Shown in pieces: positions 1,773 to 7,378 of a stretch of 64,000 bases of DNA; position 1 is the first letter of the stretch; each line of letters begins with the position of its first letter. The notes under the pieces are model-generated. The model saw only the letters and a program-made list of their open reading frames with translations, was not told where the DNA came from and did no database searches. Source of the stretch: an uncultured Acidobacteriaceae bacterium. Its GTDB lineage: Bacteria; Acidobacteriota; Terriglobia; Terriglobales; Acidobacteriaceae. The position numbers were made by a program, and so were the translations under genes. The stretch is taken from positions 49,630-113,629 of the forward strand of contig CAVVDY010000003.1 in assembly GCA_963747055.1 (NCBI GenBank), in the 5' to 3' direction.

Positions 1773-2966
1773 TTACGGCGTTTGGGACCTGCCGCCCGGC
1801 AGGCGATTAGCGCTGAACGGCGCAAGATTCACCACGTCCGGCAACTTCAGCGCACGCCGGGCCAGCGCCTCGCCGACTGCAGCCGAATGTTTGAAGCCGT
1901 GTCCTGAGCAGGCAGAGGCGAACCAGATTCTTCCGGCGTCGTCAGCCTGATCGATGACGAACCTTGCGTCCGGAGCGACGGTGTACAGGCAGGTGGCGGC
2001 GCGCACGCATCGCGACGAGACATCAGGCAGGCGAGTGGAGATGTAGTTAGCGTGCAGCGAGGCGATCTCGTCATCACTCACGCAGCGCTCGACCTGGTCG
2101 GGATCGATTGCAGTGTCGTAGCGCTCGGTCGCGGTCTTGATGCCGCCATCCAAACCGCCAATTGCCGGAAATCCGTAAAACATATCGCTGGGCCGCTCAC
2201 CGGTGATCCAGATGAAGACGGGAAAGCGCTGCGGCGTGTAGAGCTCAGGGTTTCGCGCGAGCGCGAACCAGGTCATCACCTGCCGATAGACCCTGAGATT
2301 TTGCGCGATGGTGTTTGGCAGCAGCTTGCCGATCCACGGCCCGGCGGTGAGAATCACTTGCCCGGCAGAGTAGGTCGCACGGTCGGTAGTGACGCTGACC
2401 GAGTCTCCCGACGCCTGGACCATCGTCACGGTCTCGCCGGTGCGCACCACAGCGCCTAGCTTCTTTGCCAGCCCAAGCTGTGTCTCGATACAAGCTTCCG
2501 GGCGCAGAAATCCCGCGCCGGGTTCGAAGTAACCCGCCTCTTCGTTGTCCACTCGAAATTGCGGAAAGCGTTCGCGGATCTGTGAGGCATTGAGCACGTC
2601 GTGCGCGATACCGTTCTCTTGCGCGGCGGCGATGGTGTCGCCGAGAAACGACTGCGACCCATGATGGTCTCCCACCGTGTGGGGCGACTGAAGGATGAGC
2701 GCCCCGTTACGCGTGAGCAGGCTGCGGCCGGTCGTAGCTTCGAGTTCCTCCCAAATCTGGTTGGAGCGCAGGACCAGCGGCACATACTCGCGCCCTTCGC
2801 CGATAGCCTGACGTGTGATACGCGTCTCGCCGTGCGACGAGCCGATGTCGTGCGGCGGATGAAAGCGGTCGATTCCAATCGCCCGCACGCCCAGCTTCGC
2901 GGCCTGGTATAAGGCGGCACTGCCGACCGCGCCCAGACCGACGACGAGGATGTCGGGGGCTCTCAT
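1773..2966 (-). CDS. FAD-dependent N-methyl-L-tryptophan / monomeric sarcosine oxidase family protein
   Basis: 397 aa. N-terminal dinucleotide fold VVGLGAVGSA and C-terminal ACSGHGFKH covalent-flavin cysteine motif typical of MSOX/MTOX. Confidence 0.85.
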   Translation of the reverse strand: MRAPDILVVGLGAVGSAALYQAAKLGVRAIGIDRFHPPHDIGSSHGETRITRQAIGEGREYVPLVLRSNQIWEELEATTGRSLLTRNGALILQSPHTVGDHHGSQSFLGDTIAAAQENGIAHDVLNASQIRERFPQFRVDNEEAGYFEPGAGFLRPEACIETQLGLAKKLGAVVRTGETVTMVQASGDSVSVTTDRATYSAGQVILTAGPWIGKLLPNTIAQNLRVYRQVMTWFALARNPELYTPQRFPVFIWITGERPSDMFYGFPAIGGLDGGIKTATERYDTAIDPDQVERCVSDDEIASLHANYISTRLPDVSSRCVRAATCLYTVAPDARFVIDQADDAGRIWFASACSGHGFKHSAAVGEALARRALKLPDVVNLAPFSANRLPGGRSQTP

Positions 2967-2967
2967 G

Positions 2968-3372
2968 TCAGGGTTTCAGCCACATGATAGGAAAGCCGTG
3001 GCCCAAGCGGCGAAAATCCGAATCGCTGGTGATCAGGGTGGCCTTCATCTCCATGGCGAGCGCGGCGGCGAAGGCGTCAGCGTAGTAGAGTTTGTGGCGT
3101 ACCCTAACGTCAGCGGCCGATAAAGCGCGCTGCCGCGTGGCATCTTCAACGGTAATGCGAAGGGGGTGAAGGGTCGCCAGCACCGAGAGGGCGCGATCGC
3201 GTCCGTACGTGCGCTGTAGAACGGCGAAAACCTCTCCATAGTTCACAGCGGACATATGAAGACCCGCTTGTCCGCGCATCGCCTCTCTCAGGCGCTCCTG
3301 GAGCTTAGCGGCTCCGGGCTTCTTTTCCAGAAGAGCGACGAGCGCGCTGGTGTCGAATACGTAGGTTTTCAT
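2968..3372 (-). CDS. vapC: Type II toxin VapC (PIN-domain RNase)
   Basis: 134 aa. MKTYVFDTSALVALL start with conserved Asp, and C-terminal TSDSDF motif. The stop codon is 1 nt from the start of the downstream oxidase gene. Confidence 0.9.
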   Translation of the reverse strand: MKTYVFDTSALVALLEKKPGAAKLQERLREAMRGQAGLHMSAVNYGEVFAVLQRTYGRDRALSVLATLHPLRITVEDATRQRALSAADVRVRHKLYYADAFAAALAMEMKATLITSDSDFRRLGHGFPIMWLKP

Positions 3373-3613
3373 CGTCGAATTTGCTCCCCCAGCGGCGTTC
3401 TTCCCTCAACGCGGCAAGCAAGTCCGGGCCGCCGGCAAGCATGCCCATCACTCGATCGATGTACTCTTCTGTGATGGGCTGGAGCACGATGCGCCCAAAC
3501 TCGTCTTCCAGGAAATGGACCTTGGTCCCCGCCTTGATGCCATGCTTGCGTCGGAGCTCCGCCGGGATGACAAGTTGGCCCTTGGAGGTAAATGTAGCAC
3601 TTAACTCACGCAT
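3305..3613 (-). CDS. vapB: AbrB/MazE/SpoVT-family antitoxin (VapB)
   Basis: The N-terminus SKGQLVIPAELRRKHGIKAGTKV is a looped-hinge-helix (SpoVT/AbrB) fold. The 3' end overlaps vapC by 68 nt, probably an indel artefact (see findings). Confidence 0.8.
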   Translation of the reverse strand: MRELSATFTSKGQLVIPAELRRKHGIKAGTKVHFLEDEFGRIVLQPITEEYIDRVMGMLAGGPDLLAALREERRWGSKFDDENLRIRHQRARRSSGKEARSR

Positions 3614-3665: not shown

Positions 3666-4439
3666 CTAAGACGCCAGCGCTTCGACATACTGTTCGCGAT
3701 TCGACCACACGGCAGGAGTCACGTTGTACGCGTCGAGTGCTTCGATGACGTCTCCTCCGACCTTTTGTTCCTGATCGTTTAAGAATGCGTAAGCTTCCGG
3801 CTCTGAGGTGGCGGCGCGGGCGGCACGCGTGTCGCTAAGAGTCCAAAGATAACCAATGATGTTCTCTTTTCTAGGAGAGCCGATCGCCTGCAAAATTCTC
3901 TCTGGGCGCTTTTTCGATTTTGGAATCAGAAAGTCCACTGCATGATCGTATCCACTCTTGCCCGCGAGTTTTACCCTTGCCGTGTAACGAATATCGTGAC
4001 CGTCAAGAAAGTTCTGCACGTCCTCAAAGAAGAAGCTTGCAACCCTAGGCTGGGCCATCACGAACATGTCATTGACGGCCAGCATGGCCTGCACCAAAGA
4101 ATGCAGGCGCTGAGCGACGTTGCTTGGTGACGCCTCCACGATCAATTGGTTGCTCTCGGCGCGCACACCCAGCCCATTGAGGACGCTGTCAAGCACCATC
4201 TTCCGCTTCGGAGTGTCTACTTCAAGCCCGCTGGTTCTCAGGTCCGAAAGAACATATCCATCATCGGACAAGATAATTGTCCCGTTGCGCCGCGTAGCGT
4301 ACACCTGTAAGTGGTCATTATGCCGGTCTAGGAACGGCGTAGTAAGTTCGCAGACCGCTCCGACATCTTGGACCGACAATCCGCTCCGTAACCAGTCAAT
4401 GTACTCGTTAATAAGCTTCTGGCATTCGTTCCGGTTCAC
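3666..4439 (-). CDS. DUF1828/DUF1829 domain-containing protein (function unknown)
   Basis: 257 aa. The GTG start overlaps the stop of the upstream gene (GTGA). The N-terminal ...TTPFLDRHNDHLQVY...LSDDGYVLSDL... and C-terminal ...GKSGYDHAVDFLIP... segments match my recollection of the DUF1828 + DUF1829 architecture. Confidence 0.7.
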   Translation of the reverse strand: MNRNECQKLINEYIDWLRSGLSVQDVGAVCELTTPFLDRHNDHLQVYATRRNGTIILSDDGYVLSDLRTSGLEVDTPKRKMVLDSVLNGLGVRAESNQLIVEASPSNVAQRLHSLVQAMLAVNDMFVMAQPRVASFFFEDVQNFLDGHDIRYTARVKLAGKSGYDHAVDFLIPKSKKRPERILQAIGSPRKENIIGYLWTLSDTRAARAATSEPEAYAFLNDQEQKVGGDVIEALDAYNVTPAVWSNREQYVEALAS

Positions 4440-4870
4440 ACGATCACCCCCTGAACCGCCGGGGGCGACTCAATCTTACAGAACGTACAAAACTCCTGAA
4501 ATGTGGTGGCAGGGTCGGTCAGCAACGTAAACTGCTTGGGATCGACGGCATATGCCCACCGATCGTCATAACCTTCCTTGAAAAGGTGCAGGTGAGTGCC
4601 GGAGAGGTACCGTCCATCTGGATTTGTGTGAGGCGCACCGTCCACATCAAGCCGCACCAGCACTATCGCAGACCGCGCTCTGTTCTGGAGCTTCAGCTTG
4701 GAAAGACGGAGGGTCCCTCGCCAAACGTCTAGCCAGAACCGTTCCCTGTCGCCAGGGCCTGCCAATTCGTAACTATCGTCAGCGCCTGGCGGAATGGCAA
4801 TCGACGCGGGAGCGCGCAAGAAATGTTTTACCATCGCTATCAGGTCGTCTGCTTCGGATTGGGTCAGCAT
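4436..4870 (-). CDS. Hypothetical 144-aa protein, first gene of a two-gene operon
   Basis: ATG at 4870 (MLTQSEADDLIAMVKHF...). Conserved-looking core LVRLDVDGAPHTNPDG...GTHLHLFKEGY. Translationally coupled to the DUF1828/1829 gene. The family is not confidently recognised (possibly DUF6978-like). Confidence 0.6.
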   Translation of the reverse strand: MLTQSEADDLIAMVKHFLRAPASIAIPPGADDSYELAGPGDRERFWLDVWRGTLRLSKLKLQNRARSAIVLVRLDVDGAPHTNPDGRYLSGTHLHLFKEGYDDRWAYAVDPKQFTLLTDPATTFQEFCTFCKIESPPAVQGVIV

Positions 4871-4955
4871 CGCTTGCAGAATACTCCATAGGACAATGGG
4901 AGAAACATAGAAGCAGAAGTTATTCTTTTTGCTCCCCGGCCCACGGCCCAAAGTC

Positions 4956-4983
4956 AAAACCGGCCGCTGTCGCGGCCGGTTTT
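4956..4983 (-). terminator. Rho-independent terminator (bidirectional-looking)
   Basis: AAAACCGGCCGC-TGTC-GCGGCCGGTTTT perfect hairpin flanked by A and T runs, 23 nt downstream of the radical SAM gene stop. Confidence 0.65.
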
Positions 4984-5005
4984 GACTAATTCTTGTTGCT
5001 CGAAG

Positions 5006-7120
<2,115 letters not shown>

Positions 7121-7378
7121 GGAAGCCCCTTCATTAGGTTTGATGGCGATGCCTCGGCTAGTGGAGGCACGGCGACCCAAGGCAAGCCTAAATACTCCGC
7201 CGGGAGCCGCCAATGGATATGGGCCAAACGGGAGGAATCAGCGCCTTAGCGGGGATTTGCACCATTGAACGGGAAGGCTCGCATCGACGTATGTTGTTGA
7301 AAAATCAATAGTAATTTAAGGTTCTAGACCTTAGCGTAGAGGCCCGCTTTTATTGAACATCTGAGATCGATCCTTGCT

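Follow-up and report, generated by a model that had tools for sequence, protein, structure and literature searches.

A very probable solitary member of the candidate phage defence cassette PDC-M24 in an uncultured Acidobacteriaceae bacterium

A pair of overlapping genes, A and B, was analysed in a stretch of 64,000 nucleotides (nt) from an uncultured Acidobacteriaceae bacterium (assembly GCA_963747055.1, contig CAVVDY010000003.1, positions 49,630 to 113,629; hereafter, the window, whose own positions are used below). An earlier note, made from the letters of this DNA alone, had proposed the pair as a candidate for a novel toxin-antitoxin or defence module. The minus strand carries every gene of the region, and the window holds one copy of the pair (Table 1). 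The start codon of B overlaps the stop codon of A in a GTGA sequence, and the guanine run resembling a Shine-Dalgarno sequence falls in conserved Gln-Gly codons at the C-terminus of A; an (A/G)GG(A/G)G-like run is visible in most related loci checked for the overlap. Homologues of A are exactly 144 amino acids (aa) long in 117 of the 120 cases listed, and those of B are 257 or 259 aa long. A 173-aa TTG-started open reading frame (ORF) from 4957 was rejected as gene A because of this homologue length and because the Pfam match starts at the ATG. The core of protein A reads LVRLDVDGAPHTNPDG...GTHLHLFKEGY, and both proteins are soluble and mildly acidic. The GC fraction over the pair is 0.52–0.56, as compared with 0.59–0.66 in the flanks, and the islet is accessory and horizontally acquired.

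The three Pfam domains guessed at in the earlier note were all recovered above their gathering thresholds. Protein A matches the whole model of DUF6978 (PF22398; E = 2.9e-36, 125.1 bits, gathering cutoff 29.6), and protein B consists of DUF1828 at residues 34–122 (2.1e-26, 92.5 bits, cutoff 22) and DUF1829 at residues 160–248 (2.9e-24, 85.8 bits, cutoff 22.2). In PADLOC, A matches PDC-M24A (PDLC04538; 6.3e-45, residues 1–140 on model positions 1–141 of 146) and B matches PDC-M24B (PDLC04539; 3.2e-95, residues 5–256 on model positions 3–254 of 255). With both models matched by adjacent genes in the A → B order, the profile evidence makes it almost certain that the locus belongs to PDC-M24. Given these full-length matches, the pair is an already catalogued candidate, and the novelty claimed for it has to be given up. 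The ORFs, the overlap, the domains, the flanks and the GC fraction all agree with the earlier description of the locus, which was therefore correct in every detail checked, including the place of the pair between the terminator of a radical-SAM gene and an oxidase gene, with vapBC directly next to it.

PDC-M24 is one of 145 "guilt-by-embedding" phage defence candidates (Payne, Hughes, Fineran and Jackson 2024, bioRxiv 10.1101/2024.01.29.577857), which are genes nested in BREX, DISARM or type I restriction-modification systems and were entered in PADLOC as candidates. The supplement of that study lists it as cassette CAS_00098 (FAM_00129>>FAM_00065) with a tabulated count of 153, and the name is absent from the main text of the papers found by our literature search. 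The catalogued cassette shows the same full-length model matches and the same gene order, whereas the window copy is solitary, in an Acidobacteria-like genome, and is not located in BREX, DISARM or type I restriction-modification. B also matches PHROG 5059 (2.5e-72), and all PHROG matches of the pair are labelled "unknown function". No NCBIfam model matches A or B, and neither gene maps to a characterised metabolic family in Pfam, NCBIfam or PDB sequence searches. The PDB searches, made with A and B singly and with family profiles, gave nothing meaningful; a weak similarity to KdsC/HAD (E = 0.08) and another to a repeat protein were put down to chance.

Related loci were collected in three sets. 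For the genome set, an alignment of B was scanned against one genome per species, giving 427 relatives, and counts were made on the best 80 loci; the metagenome set was picked by similarity to A using a closer alignment (68 assessable loci), and the viral set comprised 37 viral contigs with a full-length B. The linkage of the two genes is near-obligate: A immediately precedes B in 75 of the 80 genome loci, an intact B is directly downstream of A in 67 of the 68 metagenome loci (both genes are decayed in the remaining one), and A adjoins B in all 37 viral contigs. The earlier note had named two results that would speak against its proposal, namely that the families do not co-occur elsewhere or that one of them is a metabolic family, and neither was obtained. 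An NTGA overlap recurs in 60 of about 76 related cellular loci (ATGA in 36, GTGA in 21, TTGA in 3), so the coupling of A and B is not due to chance, and the compact, presumably co-transcribed arrangement of the window recurs in these 60 loci but not in the convergent viral pairs (below).

The viral loci revealed a second architecture of the pair. While 23 of the 37 have A → B on one strand, in 14 the two genes converge, A lying past the end of B on the other strand with 10–40 nt between them (including L182–L189, L191, L193, L197, L198 and L203). Translational coupling is thus usual and not essential, and the fact that linkage is kept despite a changed gene arrangement is strong evidence that A and B work together. 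Separately, DUF1828-only matches were seen in four viral contigs (L204:1384–1800, L205:4986–5354, L207:748–1527 and L208:4914–5291); three of these ORFs are short (122–138 aa), no DUF1829 part, other domain or DUF6978 neighbour was detected for any of the four, and they may be split or truncated relatives. When 1.84 billion cluster representatives were searched with HMMER, 1011 DUF6978 clusters were recovered at E-values no higher than 0.001, and the PDC-M24 family is widespread. A Pfam scan for fused domains in long DUF6978 representatives was uninformative, and an apparent DUF6978-DUF1828 fusion (P0359) was rejected as a frameshift artefact.

The best 80 genome loci come from Acidobacteriota, Deltaproteobacteria, Nitrospirota, Planctomycetota (Brocadia, Scalindua), Ignavibacteriales, Binatia, Bacillota, Thermotogae, Actinomycetota, Spirochaetota, Alphaproteobacteria, Elusimicrobia, Dehalococcoidia, Gemmatimonadaceae and one Methanophagales archaeon. 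None of the window neighbours (radical-SAM, vapB, vapC, oxidase and lexA genes) was found within 8 kb of the pair in these loci, save for weak vapB-like matches in two of them, and the PADLOC scan gives no match for the vapB and vapC of the window. The adjacency to vapBC, which had been taken as a sign of defence or addiction, is thus not conserved in related loci, and we regard it as incidental and not part of the system. The pair is a horizontally mobile, self-contained two-gene module. Around 38 solitary copies (two nearest genes per side, 150 proteins) there is no conserved third gene; the neighbours are mostly ordinary, such as ClpB, AcrB, peptidases and ABC transporters, with scattered defence genes (type I restriction enzyme, AbiLi, PDC-S01, IetA and MADS components).

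One placement that does recur is beside the genes of the helicase-methylase-ATPase system Hma. The genes hmaB (DUF1156 DNA methylase) and/or hmaC (DUF499 ATPase) are next to the pair in 18 of the 80 loci, and both flank it in 12, in the order hmaB-A-B-hmaC, across many phyla and often with 10–20 nt between genes. Such a conserved order with operon-like spacing would be expected if A and B were accessory subunits of Hma, for specificity or regulation, and the solitary copies were non-functional leftovers. This idea could also draw on a short fragment like the end of hmaB found immediately 5' of A in L023 (7360–7557), a locus that is solitary in other respects; the fragment is 88% identical to the L044 protein along its length, and it suggests that certain solitary copies may go back to copies embedded in Hma. 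However, we consider a subunit role highly improbable: Hma is lacking in 62 of the 80 genome loci, in every phage copy and in the window (no HmaB or HmaC similarity was found in the window below E = 0.08), and known autonomous systems, e.g., Septu, nest in Hma likewise (Payne et al. 2024, 10.1101/2024.01.29.577857). The solitary copies also keep both ORFs intact at 70–84% identity, which indicates selection on the pair alone.

The second recurrent placement is among the lysogeny genes of temperate Firmicutes phages. In six GenBank entries, one of them a satellite and the others temperate phages (Staphylococcus phage 37, Lactobacillus Lj965, Latilactobacillus TMW 1.1365 P3, and Streptococcus MissF, Javan249 and Javan357), B is found between a CI-type repressor and an integrase on the same strand, an interval where prophages carry exclusion and defence genes. 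A homologue of A was detected beside B in three of them (phage 37, Lj965 and MissF), and the pairs of phage 37 and Lj965 match both PDC-M24A and PDC-M24B. A Staphylococcus aureus DUF6978 protein has been detected by proteomics and falls under ciprofloxacin (bioRxiv 10.64898/2026.05.15.725322), which fits a gene expressed in the lysogenic state. The embedding in Hma and the placement in lysogeny modules lend independent support to the defence reading, and it seems reasonably likely that the PDC-M24 module protects against phages.

A gene controlling lysogeny could equally be placed beside repressor and integrase, and other authors have interpreted the conserved His cluster of A as a metal site (bioRxiv 10.64898/2026.05.15.725322); both would be in line with a non-defence prophage or housekeeping function, e.g., in regulating lysogeny or as an enzyme pair connected with metals or redox chemistry. 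We hold this to be very unlikely, as the majority of copies are located on chromosomes, away from prophages and in unrelated contexts, the pair is nested in Hma, and no curated NCBIfam or metabolic family matches it.

To see which of the two genes survives alone, 77 assessable loci of the genome set, selected by B, were compared with 67 metagenome loci selected by A. In 16 of the 77, B is intact with A lost or disrupted, by deletion or replacement of A in eight (L009, L010, L015, L032, L041, L052, L062 and L067), by frameshifts in seven (several of them in long-read assemblies and therefore possibly errors) and by N-terminal truncation in one (L048). Some of the deletions leave only the last codons of A with the ribosome-binding site of B. 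Conversely, an intact A with a split B was seen in two B-selected loci, and A without an intact B in none of the 67 A-selected loci (Fisher p = 0.007 for the asymmetry, counting deletions alone). In L009:7387–8001 and L015:7441–8001, A is replaced by an unrelated gene (174 aa in L009) with the ..QGVFT codons left and B intact; these replacement genes have no match in Pfam or PADLOC. An alternative partner family at L009, L010, L015, L041 and L067 was considered and rejected, as these loci hold deletions or replacements of A.

This asymmetry excludes the simplest reading, namely a constitutive toxin B with A as its antitoxin, and it fits an A that is harmful unless B is present. Because several lineages keep B without A, and A was never found without B, the dangerous one of the two is probably A. 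The small upstream gene is hard to reconcile with the antitoxin of a classical type II toxin-antitoxin system, because B is kept intact without A, viral pairs can be convergent, and neither protein has an antitoxin DNA-binding domain (no helix-turn-helix, ribbon-helix-helix or AbrB domain was found in Pfam and NCBIfam scans). The proposal of a defence or toxin-antitoxin pair in the earlier note is thus borne out in part, and the genomic setting speaks well for a role in defence or addiction.

Could the pair be a plain addiction module that stabilises its mobile DNA and has no anti-phage role? It is a two-gene, translationally coupled and horizontally mobile cassette, it is present on prophages and some plasmids, it adjoins another toxin-antitoxin pair in the window, and its orphan asymmetry resembles toxin-antitoxin genetics. 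Nevertheless, such a role appears unlikely considering the tight embedding between Hma genes in at least 12 loci of many phyla and the position in lysogeny modules that is typical of prophage exclusion genes, and also the existence of convergent pairs, the missing antitoxin-type DNA-binding domain in both proteins and the rarity of plasmid copies (12 of 72,556 records).

The residues of protein A that are invariant in a 57-sequence alignment (33% mean column identity) are K15, L71, R73, H81, N83, H93 and H95, and the His/Asn/His/His cluster among them looks like a catalytic or metal site. In the AlphaFold2 model of A (predicted local distance difference test score, pLDDT, of 72), H81 ends a strand at 67–82, an NPDG turn is next, and H93 and H95 are on the return strand at 88–98. 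His-Me finger (HNH-like) nucleases have a beta-beta-alpha metal finger with a His closing the first strand; H81 of A is in such a position, no helix is predicted after the hairpin of A, and A has no His-Me finger match in Pfam, PDB or BFVD. Readings of A as a cupin (HxHxxxE), a histidine triad protein or a 2H phosphoesterase were dropped because the extra motif residues are not conserved across DUF6978. It is conceivable, and at this point speculative, that DUF6978 is an enzyme of a fold unseen in solved structures with a site made of His81-x-Asn83, His93-x-His95, Arg73 and Lys15, and that together with DUF1828-DUF1829 it would form a new abortive-infection switch, in operon or convergent form, spread over bacteria, an archaeon and temperate phages.

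Protein B is invariant at P35, F36, D59, L67, G71, D124, F137, G160 and D203 in a 25-sequence alignment that reaches down to 20% identity, and nearly invariant positions include D38, D42, D60, G61, Q117, N123, D169, E180, R181 and D222. Structure prediction and a Foldseek search, both recommended in the earlier note, found nothing for A and a weak likeness to restriction endonucleases for B. The top matches of B are mostly of the restriction-endonuclease fold, with VC1899 as the best (E = 1.3e-3, probability 0.98; TM-scores ≤0.3 throughout); others are BstEII, Cdn1, MspJI, Mus81, Kpn2I, Can2, Card1 and HamA, several of which have an N-terminal sensor domain. The predicted secondary structure of residues 133–220 is compatible with an alpha-beta-beta-beta-alpha-beta core in a model with a pLDDT of 66. 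We treat the nuclease fold of B as a lead, not as a finding.

If this lead held, the roles might be the reverse of those suggested by the orphans, with B as a nuclease effector acting through its C-terminal domain or its three invariant Asp (D59, D124 and D203) and A as a fast-evolving sensor or activator, not an antitoxin, that would turn B on upon infection. Such a model would agree with the enrichment of restriction-endonuclease-fold and CARF-nuclease proteins among the Foldseek matches of B, with the fit of residues 133–220 to the core, and with the higher conservation of B in nearly all paired loci, and B-only loci would be harmless under it. It is put at a disadvantage by the low confidence of the B model and by the lack of a canonical (D/E)xK motif, for which the nearest candidate is D169...E180-R181, with N in place of D169 in two and T or S in place of E180 in two of the 25 sequences. 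In addition, the strict invariance of the His, Asn, Arg and Lys residues of A would be unusual in a pure sensor, and none of the 67 A-selected loci has A only. We consider the reversed roles rather unlikely.

We explain the locus best as PDC-M24, a candidate defence cassette, present here in a solitary copy and working as a toxin-antitoxin-like abortive-infection pair, and we give this explanation as a whole an even chance of being right. The specific mechanism, toxin-antitoxin-like abortive infection, is a tentative proposal, and equally tentative is the assignment of A as effector and B as its restraining, nucleic-acid-binding partner, which we favour about two to one over the reverse because of the orphan asymmetry, the analogy with DS-6 (below) and the invariant catalytic-looking residues of A. 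According to this proposal, NTGA translational coupling would, in the window as in most cellular loci, keep the amounts of A and B at a set ratio, and the two would form an inactive complex. A would be the catalytic and potentially harmful component, carrying His-x-Asn-Pro ... His-x-His with Arg73 and Lys15 on the predicted beta-hairpin, and might be a hydrolase that depends on His or a metal, with nucleic acid as its most likely substrate. B, which is larger and more conserved, with three invariant Asp and a restriction-endonuclease-like C-terminal topology, would restrain A and bind nucleic acid or a phage cue. Infection would then release the restraint on A, and phage replication would be halted at the cost of the cell.

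Several observations weigh against this explanation. The convergent transcription of 14 of the 37 viral pairs is atypical of toxin-antitoxin pairs. Of the two proteins, A has the higher rate of evolution in 56 of 59 and in 63 of 63 paired loci, which is the pattern more usually expected of a sensor or antitoxin A with an effector B. The orphan asymmetry can also be explained if B works alone and A is useless without B, and the comparison behind it spans two different collections, with some of the disruptions perhaps being assembly errors. Both structure models are mediocre; the fold search with the A model found no match (best E = 0.39 in PDB and 0.22 in BFVD), the nuclease-like matches of B do not exceed TM-scores of 0.3, and the canonical D...(D/E)xK is absent from the B alignment. 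There is no defence-island signal, as the neighbours of the solitary copies are mostly ordinary genes, and no functional study of PDC-M24, its Pfam domains or HipAD was found in the literature.

Comparison with known systems gives partial likenesses. HEC cassettes, like PDC-M24, have two genes and occur both nested between hma genes and alone, and both of their genes are needed for defence; however, PDC-M24 has no ATPase and no recognised nuclease domain, and neither protein matches the HEC models. The only functional statement on DUF6978, DUF1828 or DUF1829 in the literature found concerns a different system, DS-6/HipAD (DefensePredictor, PMC13092281), a validated two-gene defence with a HipA-like kinase toxin and a partner with DUF3037 and DUF1829. 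As in B, DUF1829 is there in the non-toxin partner, whereas the toxin is a kinase, DUF3037 takes the place of DUF1828, and DUF6978 is missing.

Four members of the Can2/Card1/VC1899 group (a CARF sensor joined to a PD-(D/E)xK nuclease) are among the best 30 fold matches of B, each with an N-terminal domain ahead of a C-terminal nuclease-fold domain. The resemblance is at the fold level only, with TM-scores ≤0.3 on a low-confidence model, no sequence similarity and no canonical catalytic motif in B. B has no CARF match in Pfam, a cyclase is not among the commonest families in the neighbourhood scans of solitary copies, and PDC-M24, unlike Can2/Card1, has no associated cyclic-oligonucleotide synthase. 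In the reverse-order type II toxin-antitoxin pairs HigBA, HicAB and MqsRA, as here, the first gene is small and coupled to a larger second one, and the downstream gene is tolerated alone while the upstream gene is not found alone; the pair differs from them in having no RelE, HicA or MqsR fold and no helix-turn-helix antitoxin, and in its convergent variants.

The analysis adds evidence that PDC-M24 is a genuine autonomous two-gene unit, with genes that are hardly ever apart, occur in two arrangements and nest in Hma across phyla, and that temperate phages of staphylococci, streptococci and lactobacilli carry it in their lysogeny modules. The conserved residues of A and B are concrete targets for mutation, and the prediction of a harmful partner is testable. 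If validated, the system would give a function to three Pfam domains of unknown function and possibly a new catalytic fold. The window itself is ordinary, with a small horizontally acquired defence or addiction islet (Table 1).

Table 1 The gene pair and the features around it in the 64,000-nt window.
Feature	Position	Strand	Remarks
Gene A	4436–4870	-	ATG at 4870, stop TGA at 4438–4436; 144 aa; DUF6978; PADLOC PDC-M24A
Gene B	3666–4439	-	GTG at 4439–4437, stop at 3666; 257 aa; DUF1828 and DUF1829; PADLOC PDC-M24B
GTGA start/stop overlap	4436–4439	-	B start GTG (4439–4437) over A stop TGA (4438–4436)
GGGGG run, Shine-Dalgarno-like	4447–4451	-	7 nt 5' of the B start, within the end of A
Intergenic stretch upstream of A	4871–5005	-	Presumed promoter location for the pair
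Hairpin	4952–4987	.	Perfect 16-bp inverted repeat, 4-nt loop; terminator-like, after the radical-SAM gene
vapB	3305–3613	-	AbrB/MazE type (Pfam, NCBIfam)
vapC	2968–3372	-	PIN domain (Pfam, NCBIfam)
N-methyltryptophan-oxidase-like gene	1773–2966	-	Downstream of vapC
Radical-SAM gene	5006–7213	-	Upstream neighbour of A; 735 aa

The hairpin that ends the radical-SAM gene is the upstream edge of the islet, and A starts 82 nt past it. The promoter of the pair presumably lies in the intergenic stretch upstream of A, where a scan for consensus sigma-70 promoters gave no match. No flanking direct repeats, as insertion scars, were found around the islet. The 12-mer CGCGGCCGGTTT is present twice, at 4971–4982 in the terminator hairpin and at 5054–5065 at the end of the radical-SAM gene, probably by chance.

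Beyond the islet, the gap from the end of B to vapB is 52 nt. The vapB frame extends 68 nt (22 codons) into vapC (3305–3372) rather than stopping near the vapC start; either a genuine C-terminal extension or the loss of a stop codon may account for this. The radical-SAM protein resembles the archaeal tetraether lipid synthase Tes (NF045702; 6.5e-95, 318 bits, cutoff 450) and also has an HMPTM zinc ribbon; judging from this similarity, it could bear on membrane-spanning lipid synthesis in an Acidobacteria-like genome. About 1 kb past the oxidase gene, an ORF of 205 aa on the minus strand (81–698) was recognised as a LexA-like repressor by reading its translation.

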